A stretch of 63,187 bases of DNA, the filler included, from Collodictyon triciliatum (taxonomy: Eukaryota), in the NCBI GenBank assembly GCA_043381765.1. It is 6 parts of 6 records of this genome, joined end to end, with 100 filler letters (N's around TTAATTAATTAA, not from the genome) between each part and the next. Parts side by side here need not be neighbours in the genome. Positions count along the whole stretch, not along the records: positions 53,580 to 63,187 come from JBHJMP010002656.1; 5 more parts are not named here. One strand, written 5' to 3'. Position 1 is the stretch's first letter. The number at the start of each line of letters is the position of its first letter. The position numbers and the translations under genes are program-made. The notes beneath the pieces were generated by a model. It made no database searches and was not told where the DNA came from. It worked only from the letters and a program-made list of their open reading frames with translations. This document shows, one piece after another, positions 46,018 to 63,187 of this stretch.

Positions 46018-46512
46018 TCATAACCCCCACCTGCAAAAGCGCGCCTCATACTGCCCAAGAAACCAGAAGCTGCGACGAAGACGAATCGACCCCGCATGTG
46101 CACGCTTGTAGACCGGTGGATCATTGAGCCCATCCGCAGGATTTTCCGGCTGGCGATCACGTAGAAGAGCCGGCGAATGATCGGCCTGGTCAGAGTGCTG
46201 GGCGCTTGAGAGCTCGGCCTGTGGTCTGCGGCGAAGGGCGGCCATCTTCTCAGCCTCCAGCAAGCGGATGATCTCATCGCGGAGCCGACGAATCAGCTGG
46301 GGAGAGCTGACGCGCAGATCGGAGCGCAGCACTTGCTCGGACAGCAGCGGCAGCAGCGACCCAGTCACGCCGCGGGCACGGAAGGCCGCCGCAACATCCT
46401 CGGGCATCCCGATGGCCCGCAGCCACGCCACGATCGTCTCTGCGTCCCACGCGCGGAACTCGTGCAGCGCCCACGTCCCCGTCCCCGTCTGCAGTTGCGG
46501 CCGGTCGGTCAT
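46018..46512 (-). CDS. Small SAM-domain protein
   Basis: WDAETIVAWLRAIGMPEDVAAAFRARGVTGSLLPLLSEQVLRSDLRV..LIRRLRDEI is a SAM consensus; ATG at 46512. Confidence 0.82.
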   Translation of the reverse strand: MTDRPQLQTGTGTWALHEFRAWDAETIVAWLRAIGMPEDVAAAFRARGVTGSLLPLLSEQVLRSDLRVSSPQLIRRLRDEIIRLLEAEKMAALRRRPQAELSSAQHSDQADHSPALLRDRQPENPADGLNDPPVYKRAHAGSIRLRRSFWFLGQYEARFCRWGL

Positions 46513-46742
46513 CTCCTGTGCTGCGGTAATTCCTCTTTCTTTTATAAATATAAAGAAAAAAACGACGGAAAAGGGAGCAGCGAACGAGAGAGACAGGGTG
46601 ATTACATGGAACATTGGAAGGAGAAGGAGGCTATGATCAGAGGCGGAGAGTGTGCGCGTGTGTAAGGGGGAATTCAGGAAGGGGTGTGGCAGAGAGGCAA
46701 GGGCGCAGCATATGTGGCATGAATCCGCGGGATGGGGTGCAG

Positions 46743-47423
46743 TCAGTGGATCAGGAAGCGGATGTCCATCTTGTTTGGGGGCGCGGCGGCGGGCGGGTCC
46801 GGGATGCGGATCGGGGGCCGGAAGTGGGTTGGGAAGGCGGAGTTGCGGAGATGGCGGTTGCGACGCAGCAGCCAGCGTGTGCGGCACTGGACATCGGAGC
46901 GCGTGCGGACGAGGCGGGCAATCTGCATCCACGAGCCGGTGCCGCACTGGCAGACCGCCGCATAGAGCGCATCGTCCTCGGGCGCAGTCCACGCGCCTTT
47001 GTGCAGCTCCGGATTGACCACGCGATTCCACCGCTGCGCACACTGCTTTGCGCTCTTGCCCGCCCCGCCGACCTGCGCGACGGCCTTTGCGACTGTGCGC
47101 CACTGGCTCGCCTGCGGCTGGTGTGGCTGTTTCGTCATCTGCATCTGCATCGCGAGCAGCACGGCATCCTCGGCCTCTGTCCAAACGGCATTGCATGCAT
47201 CTGATTCGCTCTCCGTCCCTTCGTCCTCGCATTGCCGCATGCGATGTGGCGTCAGAAGTGTGATGCGCAGAGGCGCGCCGGCCGTCCCGTGCAGCAGAGT
47301 CCGCTTCACTCGGCTCTGCGCGGTGCGGCTGCCCATGAACTTGATCACGCCCTGCAGTCGATGCGGCCCGGGCTGCTCTTCTCGGGCGAGGCCTGGTCTT
47401 TGCGTCTCGGCGTACTCTTCCAT
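46743..47423 (-). CDS. Two-repeat (R2R3-type) Myb DNA-binding protein
   Basis: WTEAEDAVL...WRTVA...KSAKQCAQRWNRVVNPELHKGAWTAPEDDAL...WMQIARLVRTRSDVQCRTRW. ATG 47423 preferred; an upstream in-frame ATG at 47612 is possible. Confidence 0.9.
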   Translation of the reverse strand: MEEYAETQRPGLAREEQPGPHRLQGVIKFMGSRTAQSRVKRTLLHGTAGAPLRITLLTPHRMRQCEDEGTESESDACNAVWTEAEDAVLLAMQMQMTKQPHQPQASQWRTVAKAVAQVGGAGKSAKQCAQRWNRVVNPELHKGAWTAPEDDALYAAVCQCGTGSWMQIARLVRTRSDVQCRTRWLLRRNRHLRNSAFPTHFRPPIRIPDPPAAAPPNKMDIRFLIH

Positions 47424-47460
47424 CTGGCCTGGCTCTGTGTTAAGGTTCGCTTGCCGTCTC

Positions 47461-53579: not shown

Positions 53580-54238
53580 AAGAAATAAAAAAGAAATAAA
53601 AAAGAAATAAAAAAGAAATAAAAAAGAAATAAAAAAGAAATAAAAAAGAAATAAAAAAGAAATAAAAAAGAAATAAAAAGTAAAAGTAAAAGTAAAAGTA
53701 AAAGTAAAAGTAAAAGTAAAAGTAAAAGTAAAAGTAAAAGTAAAAGTAAAAGTAAAAGAAACATAAACATAAACAGAAACAGAAACAGAAACAGAAAAAG
53801 AAAAAAGGAAAAGAAAAAAAGGAAAAGAAAAAAGGAAAAGAAAAAAGAAACAGTGAGGAGCCAGATGAATGATGCATGAAAGCATAGAATAAATCGCATC
53901 CTGTGCGCTTTCAATTGTACAAATGGAGAAAAAGAGAAAACCGCATCCCGCGTGCGACAACCTCCGCCATTCGCTTGGGAGTGCAAGCGCGACAGATCAA
54001 ACACATAATATCCAGTTAAGGAGACCGTTTTTTTTTTTAATAGAATTTGTTGATGCAGGGCGTTAAACCCTCGGTTTCGTGTTATTCCTTTTGTTGTATT
54101 TTTCGTATCTGGTGTCTTTTTTTTTCTTTTCCTCTTCACATTCTCTGCGGCATGGAGTTTGATAGTGGTTTGAAAAGTGAATCGGCATAGGTACCCCTGC
54201 TATTTTCACCCCACCTATCATTCGAAATCATCCGCTTG

Positions 54239-56766
54239 CTAAGAGAAAGAAGCATTTGATACGGTTGATAGAAGCAGTCTGTTGGATTCACTCAAATTCA
54301 CAACCCCTTCAAGCTTGACCTCACCGCACTCCAGCATCCTTGCGCTTCCGACTCTGACGAATTTCCCATCATTGACCTTCTGAGTTTCAATGAGATTGAT
54401 GGCATCAGACAAACGATTAAATGTAGCAAGCACCTTTTCGCGTTTGTCTTTCTTTACGAGATGTCTTCCTTTTGTATAAGTGACCTCGCTCCTTTGCAGA
54501 AGGTGCATTTGGCTTCCGGAGGAAATATCCCATGTGCGGAGAGTCTTGTCCATTCCGATGGACGCCAACCAACATTCTCCATTGGGACCAGAAACAGGGC
54601 AGATACCCACCAAAAATCGGATGTGACCCTTGAGTACTTTCTTTTCGTTACCGTTTGAAGGGTCCCATATGCGGATGGTCTTATCAATGCTCCCCGACGC
54701 CAGCCACCTTTCACCGCGGGGGCCGACAATACTAGCAAGACAGGATATCGAGTCTGTGTGGCCTTTCAAGGTGTTGATTTGAGTACCGGTATCAACATCC
54801 CATATACGAATCACTTTGTCCAGACTTCCAGTGGCCAAAAGCAACTGACTGCTCTCATTCTTTATCAGGCAATACGCAAAGGCGGATACTGTTGATACGG
54901 GCACTCTCTTTACTTCCAATCCTGAATGGATATCCCATAGGGCAATTGATTTATCAGGACACTCTGCTGCCAACCAAAAACCACCAGAAGATGTCTTCAC
55001 AAATTCGTGGTAGGGTCTTTCACAAGCGATGTCATCCAAAACTTTGAGATAGCCTGTCTTCATGAAATCCCAGAGACGTATGCTCTTGTCCTCACCTCCA
55101 GAGGCTATCAAATATTCTCCGTTCGGCCCAACCACTGATGAAACACAATAAATCGAATCAGAATGCCCCTCGAGTGTCTTGACATGAATACCAGTGTTCA
55201 AACACCATATTCGAACTGTCTTATCGTTACTTGCTGATGCCAACCACTTTTCTCCGTAACGGCCATTCACAATGCACACATGATTGACATCCTTGGAGTG
55301 GCCTTCAAACTGTCGGACCTGACATTCCCTTTCCAAGTCCCAAACTCGGACAGTTTTGTCCTTACTGCAGGAGGCAAGCCAAATCTCCCCTTTTGGCCCT
55401 TTTGCCTCACAGATACTGTATACAGACTGATTATGACCCTTCAACCTTTTGATTTCTTCGCCTGTAGATAAATCCCATATACGAATGGACTTGTCTTTAC
55501 TTCCCGAAGCCAGCCATGTACATCCGTTGGGTCTTTGAATAATGCAAAGACAGGTTACTGTGTTTGTATGGCCCTTTAGGATTTTGATTTGGCTTGAACT
55601 ATCATTATCCCATATACGTATAGTTCTGTCTGTGCTGCTGGAGGCTAGCCAAATCTGCCCTCTAGGCCCTTCTAAATAGCAAACACATTTGACATGGTCG
55701 GTGTGCCCTTCGAAAACTTTAATTTGACTCATAGTACTAAGGTCCCATAGGCGTACAGATTTATCATTACTTGCCGAGGCAATATACATCACACCATCCT
55801 TCTCAAAGTGACACATACTGTTCACAGCCTCTGAGTGACCAGCAAGTGATTTCTCGATAGACCCATCCGCTAGATTCCAAATAGTAATGGATCTATCGAA
55901 GCTTCCACTGGCGATCCATTTCTCTCCATTCATTCCTTTCATTTCACATAGACATGATATCGAGTCTGTGTGCCCTTTTAATTCTTCACATGAGATGCCA
56001 AATGTGACATCTTTCATATTCGTTCCGTTAAATATGCAATCGCCAATGAATGCTTTTGTCAACTGGGAGCCAGCTAGATTAGAGCCAGTAAAATCAGTGT
56101 TATCTAAAAATGAGCCGCTTAGATTGGCCTTCGGTATATGAACCCCAGAGAAATCAAATCCAGTGAGAGGTATATTCATAAAATTTAAAAAAGTGATTGC
56201 TATTGACGAATTTTCTGAATTGACGTGATTCTCTTTAGAAGAGTAAACAATTTTCAAGAGCAGCGCCACTATTTGTCCATAGTTCCACTGGGTGTCGAGT
56301 TGTACACCTTCGACATTTTTAAGAATGAAATCTTTCACTGATGTAAATTCAATCGCCTCCATATTCTTCCCTGCCTCTTTGCTGTGGTATGAAATATATT
56401 CGCACGAATTTAAAGTTCGAGAATGCATCCACCCCAATTTTTCTCCAAACATATCTCTAATATGTATCCAAAATTCAATAGCTTCTGCATGAAGTTTTTG
56501 TTCTTTGCAATATAGAGTGGCATATTCGCAAGAAATCCACACATTCCAGTCCTCAAACGATGATATTTCTCCATATATAAGGGCAGCATATTTGTAGAAC
56601 TCAAGGACCAGAGTGTTCTCTTTCTTTTCTTTTAACAACTCTGCAACCCTCAAAAACTTGGTCCCATCTCTAAGAATCATTCTTGACTGCGTATCTTTTC
56701 GTATTCTTGAAGCCTCTTTAAAATACTCAATAACTTGATCAGTTCTACATATGAAAGCGCAATATG

Positions 56767-56798
<32 letters not shown>

Positions 56799-59700
56799 AA
56801 AGAAAAAAAAAAAAGAAGGAAGAAAGAAAAAAAGGAAAAGAAAAAAGTTTAATGTAAGCATGATAAATATAAAATTGATTTAAACAGGGCATCTTTTTTC
56901 TCCATAATTAAATAAACCTTTGAAGCTCAAAGTTTATGAATCCTATGTTTTCCAACGATGTTGCAACATCAACGTGGTCATGACCAAGTGTTCGTTTCCT
57001 AATTTCTAAAGACGTTGTATATGCATCTAATGCCGGTCTATACCTTTTTTTTTTTAATTTTTTTAAAACACACATTATTTGCCGAATATGAACACAATAA
57101 TTGGCATACATTTTCCCAAAAAAAAAATCTAACCTCCCTTTCTCTTTTATTTAACCTTTAAAAAAAAATAAAACTCACTCCCCAAGATTGTAGTTGATAT
57201 CTCCGACCCTGTCATATGCCTCAACTACTTTGAAGTGGTTGGGGCCAAGACCTTCCACATAAATCTCAAGAGATTGATTGGTTGCAAACAGAGACTCTTG
57301 CAACCTAGTATATAATTATTTATTCAATATCAAGTTGAACTGTTCAACATAATTATGAGGATTTAATTGAAGGATATGTAAAGGGTCAACCTGCTCTGTA
57401 GAAATCGAACATTTCCTATATGTGAAATAATAGACGCAACATTAGGGTGTCTTTGTCCGAAAGATTTCTCAAGTATTGCCCTGGCCTTTTCATAATGCTC
57501 TATGGACTCATCGAATCTAGTGTTTTTTTTTTAATTCATCCGTTTTCAAGCTGTTGACAGAGAAATCACCAAATGTAATTTTCTTTCATTTTTTTTTTTT
57601 TAAAAAAAGGAACTCACTTTTTCTCCAATGTATAGACATGTCCTATGTTTTCAAACGATAATGCTACCAAAGGGTGTTCATTGCCAACTCTTTTAATTCG
57701 AATTTCGAGAGACTTGTTGAAGTATAAAAGAGCATCAATCACCCTGTTGATGGATTAGAAGCTTTATATATATCTATTTCGTCCTTCAAAATGAGGGAGG
57801 GGAAGGGGGTTAATACTATAACAATTTTTAGTAGCATACTTGGCCTGTAGGAGGTATATATGACCAAAATTATCATTTGATGAAGAAGCCAAGAGATCTT
57901 CGATTCCATGATAGCGAACACGAATATCATACGACTTCTTGTACTCCAATAGTGCCTCTTCGTATCTTTTGTTCAAATATAAAGTCCATAGTTCTTAAGA
58001 TTAGATGAAAAATTTGCTTCTGAAAAGTCGTTCGTAAAAAACATATACCACCATCTAATTACTAGACATGATTATATTGATTACTTTTTCTCTTTCTGAT
58101 ATATGAAGCCAATTTCATCATATATATCTGCCACTGTTTCGTCATTTTCATGACCTAACTCTTTTTTCAGCTGCAGGCATTTTTGAAGACAAATCATAGA
58201 TTCTTCCCAACTGATGTTTTTTTTTTCATTTTAATAAAATAATGCTAGACTTCTCACAAAAGAGTAATAATATAATATAATATAATATAATATAATATAA
58301 TATAATATAATATAATATAATATAATATAATATAATATAATATAATATAATATAATATAATATAATATAATATAATATAATATCACTTTTGGAGGTTTTT
58401 GTAAACGCGTCCGAGAGAAAGGTAATCATAAAATTTCGATTCTAAACAATATAAAAAAATGGGTAAGTTATGACAGGGACTGAATAGAATTATCACTTGA
58501 AAATATTCAAATACAAATCAATCGAAGGAAATAGTTTTTTCTCTATATATCTTTTCATTCACCTTCCGATGTCCTTCTGGATATACGCTGGACAATGATC
58601 GAAGATAGAAACATATTTTCGAATGATTCCAAGAAAAATTCCACAAGAACGTCTCCAACCTTGGAAAGAGTCTGAAAGATAAACCGCCAAGGCATTTGAT
58701 ATTTACAAAAATAAGCAAGAACGAAGAGCAAAAAAATCTGGTTCTCCCTTTTTCAGAAACAAAGAAACAAAGAAACAAAGAAACAAACAAACAAAGAAAC
58801 AAAGAAACAAAGAAACAAAGAAACAAAGAAACAAACAAACAAACAAACAAACAAACAAACAAACAAACAAGTAAGCAAGCAAACAAGTAAAACAGCAATG
58901 GAAACGAACCTTTATTGAAGAGCCATATACATCTTTATAATTGGCTACTCCGATGGAATTTAAAACTCTCCAGCAGGAGAAAAACTCGTATCGGTGACGG
59001 CTTGTCAACATACTCATAACAACCTATATTATCTCTTATTCATATTTGTCTTCTATGAATAATTGATATACAACAAGCTTGTTTAGATTTACTGCATGAT
59101 ATACATGTTCAGTCTTTATGTATTCAACAAGGAGTTCGTAGCTCTCTCCTTCAAGAAGTTGGTGGCAAACTTCAGCAACAAGTTCCGGGTCTGTTTCGTT
59201 GTCCTCTGCATATTGACCATAGAGCCATGTTCCATAATCTCTATGTGTTTGCCTCTTTGTTTCCTTTTCGTAGAAAAAATACTTCTCTGCTGTCTCTAAG
59301 AGCAGTTGGTGGAAGTACATATACCTGCGATGTATGGTGATGTACGCAATAGTAAGAATAAATAAGAGTGATATTAAATTAGCCATCTGAGTAGTGAATT
59401 ATTTTCCAGGCAGCCAAACCTCCCGTTACGAACAAAGAGAGATTCTACAAGAGTGAAGAAGAATGATTTCCTATAAAATTTTGACCTCAATTCAACACCA
59501 GAGTTGTAATAGGTTGTGAAATTCATCGATTATTAAAAGATTTTTCTTGAACCATTCTGCCAAGCTGAATCGCCTGCCTACGAGGCTCTCGACATATTTA
59601 TCCAAGTCTCCTTCGCTTAGACCAATACGAGAGATATAAAGAACCTTCATGGAAAGATCAACTATGTTCGACCCTTGGAAATGTTAAAAATTAGTATCAT

Positions 59701-62700
59701 CCAATAAAAACAGGATTGCTTCAAAAATAAATAATTGATTTAAAAAAGTCTTTTATATTTACTTATATGTAAACCTACCCGGAGCATTGAATTTCGATTT
59801 CCAGCGATTTATAACAAGTGTATAAAGTTCAATCACATCGGATGTCGAGAGGAGCTCAAAAAGTTCGCCATCGAGCTTTTCATAAACTCCAAAGATTCGA
59901 ATTTCATCCAAAACGATGCGAAGATATAAAGGATGTCCTTTACAAAATTAATTTTTCTTTGTTAAAAATTATGAAGCTTATGACATTTTAATTCTCCTGA
60001 TGATTGATTTTTTCCCCATATTTTAACCTGTCTTGCTTTCTTGAGCCAGAATCATATCTATCTGACTTGAGTCAAGTTTTTTGTCATAGCGTTGTAGAAA
60101 ACAAGTGGTACTCTCTTCAATCTCGCCACAAGAGAGCTTTTTAATTGGAATCACCTCCAATCCGATTTCAATTGCGGTCTTGGTGTTCGGGTCGAAAGGA
60201 AGGTTATAATTCATATAGAGCGGGTTCATTGCTAAAAATAGTAGAAGTAATAGCAAAAATATGACAATATGATGACATAAATGAAGATTATAAGCATATT
60301 ACCTTGCATGATATATGAGTGTCGATAGATGAGACAACCAATGCTGTATTTTTTGGTGTTTTCTTTGGAAGCCATGTAAGTAAATGAGGGGCTGGAGTGT
60401 TTTGTGATGGCGACAACTGGTTGATGGCATCAATGAAGAAGACGACTTTATTTCTCCTAAAACAGACAACCATAAATATTCTTGTATATAATACGTAAAT
60501 AAATATTAGCATATTTAATTCTGATACCTATATACTTAATATTAAGTATATATTGATATCAAATTCTCTCTTTTTTTTTTTTTAGGTTTTTTGCGAGGGC
60601 GGTACGCTATATTTTTTTTCTGACAAACGTTTTTGTTCTCTCAATTGCTTTCAACAATCCTTGGATTCCTTCTCTTTCAAAATCTATTATAGTTTGACAG
60701 ATTAATCTTGAAATTAATACAATTTTTTATAATTTTTTTAATCACCTGAATCTTTCATGTTTTCTGTAGAGAAGGACCGCAAAGTCGAAAAGGACTGTCT
60801 CCAAAACCGAATTGAAATGCTGGTGTTAAGTGTTGAATTATTTTGATTACTACTGATGGCCTTTTTTTCTTTCATAGAAAAATGAGAGTTAAAAAAGAAT
60901 AATTAAAATTTCATGAAAAGAATTTAGTAAAGTAATATCAAATACCTTTCAACGTAATTGCTCATACTCGTGCAACCAACGAAATGGTATATAACATTAA
61001 TACCCAACTCTGGATTAGAATCCAGCTCTTGAATAGTCGCAGCCATGAGCGAAGATTTTCCAATCCCAGATTCTGCTCCAAGAATGGTTATTTCCTTTTC
61101 AAATCCATCAAGCTGCTCAATGATCTATGAATCGGTTGTTACAAATATAAAATATGTGAGATTCGAATTCTGTATATTTCCTTTCAAATTATACTCCTTC
61201 TCCTCTATTATGTATCTTTATGGTGAGGACATGAACCAGAACCTTCTCGCTGATTGTTTGTAAAAGTTCTCGACGACCACCGAAGCCGATCAGTCGATGC
61301 ATTTTGAATTGATGCTGTGCTTGATCTTCGGGGTCCCGTACCTGTGTTAAAAACCGGCATAATATATTATCATTTATACAAAAGGGGATATGTTTCATAT
61401 AGAATAGTAGTGACATGATGTATCTTAAATTAACAAGCAACACAATCATTTGAAATTGTGAGTACCATGCGACTTGTAAAATCTTTATCTAACGCATATT
61501 TTAGATGTAATGTCACAAGGTCTGAATAATGCCTTGGCCCTTGATATATGTAAGATCCGAATTTTTCTCCAATAACCAGTTTTAGGGTGTCTTGTCTTTT
61601 GCGCTGTGCAGTAACATTTCATTAATTGATTTGTAGGTTTTAAAAGATGATTAAATTGGGACACATACCGCTTCTTGGTTTTCTGAGCGATACAAAACCC
61701 TTTCTTCTTCCGTTTTTGCTTGTTCAATTGCATATGCTTCATCCCTGAAGTAGAAGAATACTCGGCTACAGGCTGGTTTTTCAATCAGCGCTGCATATTG
61801 CACCTTTAGAAAAAAAAAGTCAGATGTTACAGCCTATCTAGTTATTATTTTTGACTACACATTTTCCATTAATATTTTGCTCCATGAAGTATCTCTGTTG
61901 ATCAAAAAATAATAGCAGTGGGGAAATATAATCAAACCTCATATTCTGTTACACTCAACCCAGGCATGCCATCGAGGAAGGGGTATTTTTTGTTTGTTTC
62001 ACTACGCCACTCAACAAATATTTCGTCAATTGTAGCATTTGGTTTTAGTCCAAGTAGCTCTTGGAGCCTTTCATTCTTGTTAAGCTCGGTATTACACTGG
62101 TTTGGAATCCAGCCATATCGAGCTCCGAGAGAGCAAACAAAATATGGACATTTCCCGATGGAGTCTAAGCATCGGATGACAACCTGAAAAGTACAGAAAT
62201 TTTTCTCAGTACTAGTATAATACAGCTATGTGTAATTGATGACAGTGATTAAGCAAAATACATGATTAAAAAATTATCGAAGAATGTCATTGGCACTCAT
62301 GTATTACAGTTCCTCAATTTTCAATGGGACATACCCATCCCTCACTGCTATCATCTGATGTGAGTCCCCAACGCAAATCGATGAAAACGAGCTCTATTCC
62401 CATAGACTTTGCATGCTTTTTGAGCCTTAGTTTGAGTCAAGTAAGAATAGACGTTGAATAACCAAACGTTCTGAATAGCACAAAAAAGCGCCAATATATA
62501 TGGTATATAAGGTACGTGAGACTTACTCAACTGCTCCGTATTGGAAAAATGCATTTCTCTCATTTTGCATGTCTCGAAATGTTGAAGATAAAAACACACG
62601 CACGACACGCTCTTCGAAAACTTGGATGCCTATTGACTTTGGTGTTGAGTAGCGCTGAGGAGGTGGTGTCCACTGCGTAAAATGTCTATCTTTGCCTTCA

Positions 62701-63077
62701 TCTCGGATTGAGTTGATCTGTTGTGAATTTTTCTGAAGTTATAACACTCGAAAAATAATCTTGAGTTTTTCTCATTTATGTATTAATAATGGAGAAAATT
62801 TTATATTATTTAACACCGTGTTTTTTTTTATCACCTTATCAAAAATAATGCATGTTCTAATCAGAACAGCACTTCCTTTTCCTTCTAGCCCAAAATCTAC
62901 AAGAGAGAGAAAAGAGAGGCGGGTCATATGATGCATATTAATGATGGTATTAAAATGGATATTTGAGGAAGGAGGAGGGTGGATAACATTAAAATTTAAA
63001 TACCACTGAAAGCAAACGGAATTTTTCCTTCATCAAACAATTCTTTGGCCATTAGGAATCGTTGAGACTCTGCTTTC
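54239..63077 (-). CDS. DUF4062-NACHT-TPR-pentapeptide-WD40 STAND NTPase; 5' end beyond window
   Basis: RVFLSSTFRDMQNERN, FIDLRWG, CPYFVCSLGARYGW. Walker A GAESGIGKSS (61050-61079) and Walker B VVFFIDAINQL. GHPLYLRIVLDEIRIFG. Six 126-nt TPR exons (58085-58210 down to 56918-57043) splice in phase into a 2506-nt last exon 54239-56744 with pentapeptide repeats and about 11-12 GH...WD repeats. Confidence 0.92.
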
Positions 63078-63187
63078 TGAATATTTTTAAAAATAAAGAG
63101 GATGCGATTTTTTTTTTTTTTTTTTTTTTTTAGAAAGCCCTTTTTTATTGGGTGTTTAATTTTTTTCTTTATTTCATAGGGGGTTTT

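Follow-up and report, generated by a model that had tools for sequence, protein, structure and literature searches.

Probable old fusion of two STAND families in a TeTIR-NACHT-TPR gene of Collodictyon triciliatum that ends in a pentapeptide-WD40 block

Analysis of a stretch of DNA from Collodictyon triciliatum (the window, 63,187 nucleotides joined from six parts of the assembly GCA_043381765.1) has revealed a gene in which a TeTIR effector domain, a NACHT-type ATPase and an array of TPRs are followed by a pentapeptide-WD40 block (Table 1). The gene, located in the part from JBHJMP010002656.1 (window 53580-63187), is novel within the TeTIR-NACHT STAND family and goes back to an old fusion, not a recent one, that a single protist lineage has inherited and multiplied. 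Very likely it originated by one fusion of two resident-type STAND families in an ancestor shared with Diphylleia rotans. In that ancestor, a recipient family of TeTIR-NACHT-TPR genes, rich in introns and with each TPR on a 126-nt exon of its own, would have existed side by side with a donor family of intronless NACHT-pentapeptide-WD40(-Sel1) genes. A single in-frame DNA recombination or fusion would have put the donor block, from the cap helices onward, onto the end of the recipient's terminal exon, replacing the stop, and the hybrid would then have been amplified to about 100 copies, in which segment exchange and change of WD40 number would still be going on. An old fusion origin combined with a sensor-NADase function is probably the best explanation of the whole.

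Table 1. Coordinates of the gene, its parts and the RNA features in the window
Feature	Position	Strand	Evidence or remark
TeTIR(DUF4062)-NACHT-TPR-pentapeptide-WD40 gene	54239..63076	-	27 exons, 1917 aa; colinear with D. rotans P0013
TeTIR/DUF4062 NADase-like effector domain, four exons	61669..62594	-	Pfam DUF4062; TEP1 residue spacing
NACHT-type ATPase and helical domains	59105..61341	-	Weak per-exon Pfam; P0013 alignment
Six TPR exons in phase 2-2, each of exactly 126 nt (42 aa)	56918..58210	-	TPR_12
Last intron, TPR boundary	56745..56917	-	Splice scores; paralog comparison
Terminal intronless exon, 2506 nt	54239..56744	-	Open frame; gene model
Three degenerate intron-free TPRs	56375..56743	-	Profile comparison; AlphaFold2
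Fusion zone	56261..56386	-	Recipient likeness to exon aa ~119, donor likeness from aa ~162
Cap helix pair and pentapeptide beta-helix, common to donor family	56000..56281	-	Pfam; profiles; AlphaFold2
11 WD40 repeats of ~45 aa, pairwise identity 35% on average	54515..55996	-	Pfam; motifs; AlphaFold2
Family C-terminal tail	54239..54514	-	Paralog comparison
69-nt GT-AG intron, removed from antisense X1 contig	56170..56238	+	RNA contig
AG acceptor joined to repeated 50-nt leader in X1 contig	54312..54314	+	Candidate spliced leader

The model was built from coordinates as 27 GT-AG exons in a single open frame of 1921 aa, shortened to its present length when one donor was moved to fit the D. rotans protein; the 5' end of the gene lies beyond the contig edge. 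The gene runs from TeTIR/DUF4062 through NACHT and the helical domains to the six TPR exons and the long last exon. The 26 upstream exons measure 51-246 nt and the introns 62-238 nt, and the frame from 56848 to 54239 on the minus strand runs for 869 codons without a stop. The model thereby agrees with the preliminary description of this DNA, in which an intronless exon was joined in phase to the TPR array of a gene otherwise dense in introns. The NACHT region gave weak per-exon matches to Pfam NPHP3_N and NACHT, with Walker A in exon 61124-60946 and Walker B in exon 60456-60303 (both assigned by eye), and four of the six TPR exons matched TPR_12. The last intron (173 nt, phase 2) has a donor score of 7.0 and an acceptor score of 4.1, both within the range of 203 reference sites, and its repeat position and phase are identical to those of the introns bounding the six TPR exons. 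The junction intron is an ordinary TPR-boundary intron with nothing special about it. The window also contains a second TeTIR-NACHT-TPR gene at about 15500-10726 (minus strand) with at least five 126-nt TPR exons, which is cut by a contig edge, as well as a SAM-domain ORF at 46021-47439 (minus strand) and a kinase exon at 27706-28056 (plus strand).

The terminal exon opens on a TPR helix, in register. AlphaFold2 modelling of the exon (mean pLDDT 82, pTM 0.50, 21 sequences in the alignment) placed helices at residues 2-123, with pLDDT of about 70-94, in three helical hairpins of 42-residue spacing. Pfam detected no TPR in residues 1-160 of the exon, and the TPRs there emerge by profile comparison only; the second and third resemble the native terminal exon of TPR-only paralogs. 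The pentapeptide domain PF00805 was detected at residues 206-240 (E 1e-8) and WD40 repeats with an E-value of 1e-78, and the structural model has one beta unit beyond the 11 repeats. The degenerate TPR helices, pentapeptide repeats and roughly 11-12 WD40 repeats described earlier are thus recovered in a more exact form. The recurring WD40 signature reported with them is real, but it is loose, and exact GPNGE is present in 2 of the 11 repeats. The copy in the window ends before the Sel1-like repeats into which many of its paralogs continue.

Proteins that span the junction have been found in D. rotans. The EukProt EP00002 transcript protein P032243 (2619 aa; P0013) aligned with model residues 9-1380 at 50% identity over 1,372 residues, gap-free across the splice junction. 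Only 3 of the best 150 matches among 1.84 billion representatives covered the whole of a 293-aa junction query, namely P0013, P0014 (P040976) and P0015 (P021718), all of them transcript proteins of D. rotans. The same species has donor-type transcript proteins (P0016 and P0021) in addition to these fusion-type ones. RNA data for the window copy came from three runs of one study, presumed to be RNA, which were compared as contigs over 54100-58250. Run X3 had no contigs on the region and 57030-58250 was uncovered in all runs, none of which is evidence on expression, and the splice from 56918 to 56744 was not seen in any RNA contig of the three runs. This lack of a spliced contig would fit a separate WD40 gene, the fusion then being an artefact of the gene model, a reading whose probability is close to negligible given that the transcript-derived P0013, P0014 and P0015 all cross the junction, that in the paralogs inspected the ORF begins shortly upstream of this acceptor as well, and that the exon starts with a TPR helix in register. 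Since no RNA contig has the splice, splicing of the window copy is judged by its splice signals, by conservation and by the homologue in D. rotans. By the measure of the D. rotans protein, the terminal exon is part of the TeTIR-NACHT-TPR gene.

Comparison with TPR-only genes of the same genome has located the fusion point inside this exon. These genes have the same 126-nt phase-2 exons, and 10 of the 14 examined end in a phase-2 exon that starts from the same boundary and encodes two intron-free TPRs, with a stop after the two TPRs in eight of them, N in L080 and a long tail in L092. A profile built from the 10 terminal exons matched residues 43-119 of the fusion exon with an HHalign probability of 95.6% (E 1.3e-8). 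The donor region before the cap matched neither the fusion exon nor the TPR-only terminal exons (HHalign about 2%). Between the two likenesses lie 42 aa that resemble neither parent, and the fusion exon has one intron-free TPR more than the two of the TPR-only terminal exons. As far as such likeness can place it, the breakpoint is within the exon, at about 56386-56261, downstream of the recipient's own terminal TPRs. The first 120 or so residues of the exon match TPR-only terminal exons, hence the graft was not made at an intron, contrary to the earlier proposal of a graft at the intron edge. The terminal exon is without introns because both parent pieces were already intronless, and intronlessness inherited from both parents is no evidence for an RNA intermediate. 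Among the paralogs, L089:6120-9998 has about 170 additional residues of degenerate TPR-like sequence in its terminal exon. At L076:4280-5542 (minus strand) a long exon, SPRY-like to the eye, comes after a TPR-only paralog and may be a second, independent capture downstream of a TPR array, and L086 and L094 are nearly intronless TeTIR-NACHT-TPR genes with ORFs of about 960 codons that form a separate branch.

Recipient, donor and hybrid types coexist in one genome. When the genome was searched with the linker-cap-pentapeptide piece, 1203 candidates came up, of which 150 were scored, and all of these were significant. By hand count, 104 of the 150, the window copy among them, start within the linker specific to the fusion, and 20 start only from the cap. 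TeTIR, NACHT and TPR exons were present upstream in each of the 20 linker-starting loci fetched. By these numbers the architecture is not a one-off; fusion-type copies are approximately 100, near-identical ones of which may be alleles or assembly duplicates. Shuffling among the copies seems to be ongoing. The loci L038 and L053, which may be young paralogs or alleles, have the same sequence (100%) for about 5 kb, introns included, and fall to 85% identity at the start of the terminal exon. In the degenerate TPRs, two pairs of multi-residue motifs were seen in each of the four possible combinations among 27 paralogs, which indicates recombination. The WD40 motif count per paralog ranges from 0 to 25 (some ORFs are cut by the locus end), and the window copy is diverged, with at most 49% identity to the nearest module. 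At the locus L071 the pentapeptide is kept and no WD40 motif was seen.

The recipient and donor types were sampled in two further sets of loci. With a TeTIR exon as the query, 134 matches were obtained among 140 candidates, and of 20 loci taken from the weaker ones, two were fusion-type and 18 had no cap, pentapeptide or WD40, TPRs being present in 16 of these 18. Twenty further stretches were picked for very long ORFs. Three of them were full fusion-type (two genes), two held the TPR end only, and 15 had no match to the upstream TeTIR-NACHT-TPR part and contained ORFs of about 1,800-2,900 codons that lack introns and have the cap-pentapeptide-WD40 block directly after NACHT (Pfam NACHT on the one tested). 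Many of these intronless donor-type genes have the WD40 signature, the tail and the Sel1-like repeats in common with the fusion type. Bacterial contamination as their source was ruled out by eye from four fetched flanks, which look nuclear, with short-exon eukaryote-like genes, homopolymers and microsatellites. The suggestion that the C-terminus was taken from another STAND family holds, the family being NACHT-pentapeptide-WD40, although the event was neither unique nor recent. Within the donor type, L056 and L057 (G000:C2561) belong to one 3173-codon ORF that has the cap-pentapeptide block twice. The N-termini of the donor-type L056-L072 and P0016 have an LRGG-G motif followed by G-N-x-S, which resembles a ubiquitin-type cleavage site that would expose a myristoylation signal.

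Phylogenies of the two halves have been computed separately, as the preliminary description had proposed. The TeTIR-NACHT tree (36 rows of concatenated best tblastn blocks, 479 columns) split 19 fusion-type rows, including P0013, from 17 TPR-only rows at 100/99. The module tree (70 rows, 121 columns, midpoint root, bootstrap unsettled at 0.965) leaves out P0102, which had no match, and L057, which shares its ORF with L056; it grouped 27 fusion-type rows with P0018 of D. rotans and a 132-aa fragment at 96/65, and this group joined 10 resident intronless genes at 98/80. In the module tree, four divergent resident donor-type genes and P0016 are left without a resolved place among rows that are bacterial or unnamed. 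A single fusion that predates the split of Collodictyon and D. rotans is favoured as the simplest reading of these sequences. With many copies, a D. rotans homologue and the TeTIR-NACHT tree, the architecture has turned out to be common and vertically inherited within this lineage, a result the preliminary description had named as counting against its view.

Relatives of the block alone are more widespread. A protein search with residues 1-290 of the exon gave 11 matches among 1081 candidates, weak and mostly through the pentapeptide part. The preliminary description had placed the block in Mortierellaceae, their endosymbionts and ciliates, and relatives of it were found in Mortierella (P0010), a Tisiphia endosymbiont (P0036) and the ciliate Cyclidium (P0125). 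Its presence in Tisiphia, the tie of Mortierella NACHT-WD40 proteins to Mycoavidus by possible HGT in the accessible part of one paper, and a GC3 of 0.44 in the pentapeptide-WD40 block against 0.37 upstream are the observations in favour of direct transfer, with a bacterial endosymbiont as the source of the block in the TPR gene. Such a transfer is very improbable, as the nearest relatives of the block are resident nuclear genes with the same WD40 signature, tail and Sel1-like repeats, and full cover of the junction query among the best 150 matches was confined to D. rotans. HGT may well be the earlier source of the donor family itself. To explain the fusion, neither retroposition nor HGT is needed, since the closest source family resides in the nuclear genome and had no introns to begin with. 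DNA recombination or fusion is favoured, and no sign of retroposition or direct HGT was seen.

The RNA contigs have also pointed to an antisense transcript. Run X1 gave four contigs between 54312 and 57029, two of which run into the last intron unspliced. Run X2 gave a contig over 54100-55615 with 16 differences, whose loose end resembles a cDNA template-switch adapter and whose orientation would point to a sense transcript of the WD40 part. Of the 113 GT sites on the plus strand of the exon, the donor of the 69-nt intron scores best, its acceptor is weak (54th of 127), and the ends of the intron were not conserved in any of 20 paralogs. Read as a sense-strand splice the 69-nt gap is in frame, but it has non-canonical ends and would delete a cap helix, and this reading was rejected; a template-switch artefact is possible. 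An antisense coding gene was rejected as well, with a longest open stretch of 100 codons in the spliced contig and two plus-strand ORFs that have no Pfam match. Taken together, the X1 contigs suggest a leader-capped, cis-spliced antisense RNA at 54314-57029 on the plus strand, over the terminal exon and the last TPR exon.

The leader motif of this RNA is absent from the window and has 37 copies in the genome. Among 40 genomic matches to the leader surroundings, 21 run beyond the 50-nt leader and have a downstream part in common, and the other 19 end precisely with the leader, at the donor position. The 16 extending copies inspected have a GT donor, a T-rich motif downstream where the contig reaches and a TATA-like box where read; the flanks of the T-rich motif differ from the usual purines. 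Candidate SL RNA genes with a 50-nt exon and hairpins have been located at L100:1440-1600 (G000:C532), where the leader occupies 1477-1526, and in clusters at L101, L102 and L122, and no Rfam family matched the leader gene at gathering level. Extending copies are often inverted pairs about 2.6 kb apart and occur on both strands. The inverted pairs raised the terminal repeat of a DNA transposon as a candidate, which is disfavoured by the TATA-like box, the splice donor and the 19 exact stops. Most of the leader-only copies inspected (from L098, L099, L039 and L103-L121) continue into AG repeats and a shared element, and one of them, in L108, heads a LINE-type endonuclease ORF. The base before the leader is T in all 15 leader-only copies inspected versus A in the gene copies, and the leader-only copies are likely retrocopies of trans-spliced RNA. 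For cryptomonads, the available text of PMC5619915 gives multicopy leader genes, a GT donor, a U-rich motif and both strands as genomic criteria for SL trans-splicing. Leader genes with these properties are present here, and the transcript side consists of one RNA contig with one AG. SL trans-splicing is likely in this supergroup, and a largely non-subscription literature search located no report of a spliced leader in Diphylleia or CRuMs.

Retrocopies headed by the leader indicate that RNAs are copied back into this genome, which has elements of LINE type (in L077 an ORF that is RT-like by eye, in L108 the endonuclease PF03372). The LINE machinery could hence have put a donor cDNA into the last exon of the TPR gene, and the extra intron-free TPR of the fusion exon would be compatible with such an RNA intermediate. 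The donor family is intronless regardless, so the absence of introns is uninformative on this point, and no leader relic was found in the window or near the donor and fusion exons of loci L001-L102; on the one family locus with a leader copy, L039, this copy stands at the head of a repeat that lies upstream of the gene. Poly(A) or target-site traces would no longer be expected from an event of this age. An RNA intermediate is improbable on balance, and DNA recombination or fusion is the preferred route.

The upstream part of the gene has features of a TeTIR NADase. Pfam DUF4062 was matched on two exons, each alone below the curated cut-off, and the comparison with the TEP1 structure 11gz gave a weak match on one exon (E 0.18). 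All eight of the TEP1 residues F902, S905, R908, R914, R942, W943, C959 and R976 are present at exact spacing; the accessible text of bioRxiv 10.64898/2026.09.21.753143 reports that they were tested by mutation in the human protein. A SVTEYE glutamate motif at model residue 221 follows an insertion and offers candidates for the counterpart of TEP1 E1008. In its resting state the protein would be an autoinhibited NLR-like receptor. The TPR solenoid, the rigid pentapeptide spacer and the WD40 propellers would bind a ligand, probably microbial or prey-derived, upon which NACHT would undergo nucleotide exchange and oligomerisation and TeTIR would cleave NAD+ to signal or kill. The TPRs and the WD40 repeats may be two sensors, or the TPRs may act as a structural brake. 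This sensor-NADase function, read from sequence, is moderately favoured. The same preprint, in the part available, describes TEP1 as active in NADase assays, NWD2 as weak and the prokaryotic homologues as inactive, and no STAND activation or higher-order assembly as demonstrated for the human relatives. On these grounds the protein could have the same origin and yet serve outside immunity as a scaffold or in trafficking, in the manner of NPHP3 or TEP1, with little NADase signalling. That role is unlikely, since about 100 recombining paralogs with variable repeat numbers better fit a receptor repertoire, and the catalytic glutamate motif, for which there is a candidate here, is absent from NPHP3 according to the preprint's accessible text. 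A sensor-NADase therefore remains the preferred function. A bolder synthesis, in which CRuMs would have about 100 dual-repeat NADase receptors with a swappable terminal-exon cassette and this copy would be restrained by the leader-capped antisense RNA, is doubtful.

The gene does not represent a new kind of system. It is of value as a clear example of NLR-like domain shuffling, with both parents, the hybrid and the breakpoint visible in one genome, and for its occurrence in a deep-branching lineage whose immunity is unstudied. In addition, the roughly 100 copies are natural variants for asking if the STAND domain switches the TeTIR NADase, a question left open in the 2026 preprint as far as its available text goes. 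The leader and antisense observations may outweigh the fusion finding if transcriptomes confirm them.

The architecture was not recognised as described in the preliminary account, and a largely non-subscription literature search likewise located neither it nor Diphylleia NACHT proteins in print. Several known systems resemble it in part. The fungal NLR surveys, in their accessible portions, have a 'mixed' category for several canonical domains, so that stacked repeat types have a precedent. Brown algal NB-ARC-TPR and ROCO-LRR genes (PMC11378527, citing Teng et al., 2023) are candidate immune receptors that likewise have symmetric repeat exons, each with one repeat and in phase 2 for the LRR exons, but their NTPase is different and the available text reports no fused second repeat block. 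The TeTIR-NACHT STAND family of TEP1, NWD1, NWD2, TTC41 and NPHP3 is set out in the accessible part of bioRxiv 10.64898/2026.09.21.753143. As in that family, TeTIR/DUF4062 stands here directly upstream of NACHT, C-terminal repeats follow, and the RWG loop, the Cys and Arg residues and a candidate glutamate motif are kept. Its members are described as having 'either WD40 or TPR-type' repeats, whereas both are present here with a pentapeptide beta-helix between them, and against five human genes there are about 100 of the fusion type. The cap, pentapeptide and WD40 are shared with the NACHT-pentapeptide-WD40 proteins of Mortierella, ciliates and endosymbionts (P0010, P0125 and P0036; 10.1101/2022.03.16.484565, in its available part). 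In the resident intronless family the block directly follows NACHT, with no TeTIR and no TPR, whereas here it follows the TPRs. The unannotated D. rotans proteins P0013-P0015 share both the TPR-pentapeptide-WD40 order and the junction, and P0013, known as a transcript only, has about 300 additional N-terminal residues that correspond to sequence beyond the contig here.
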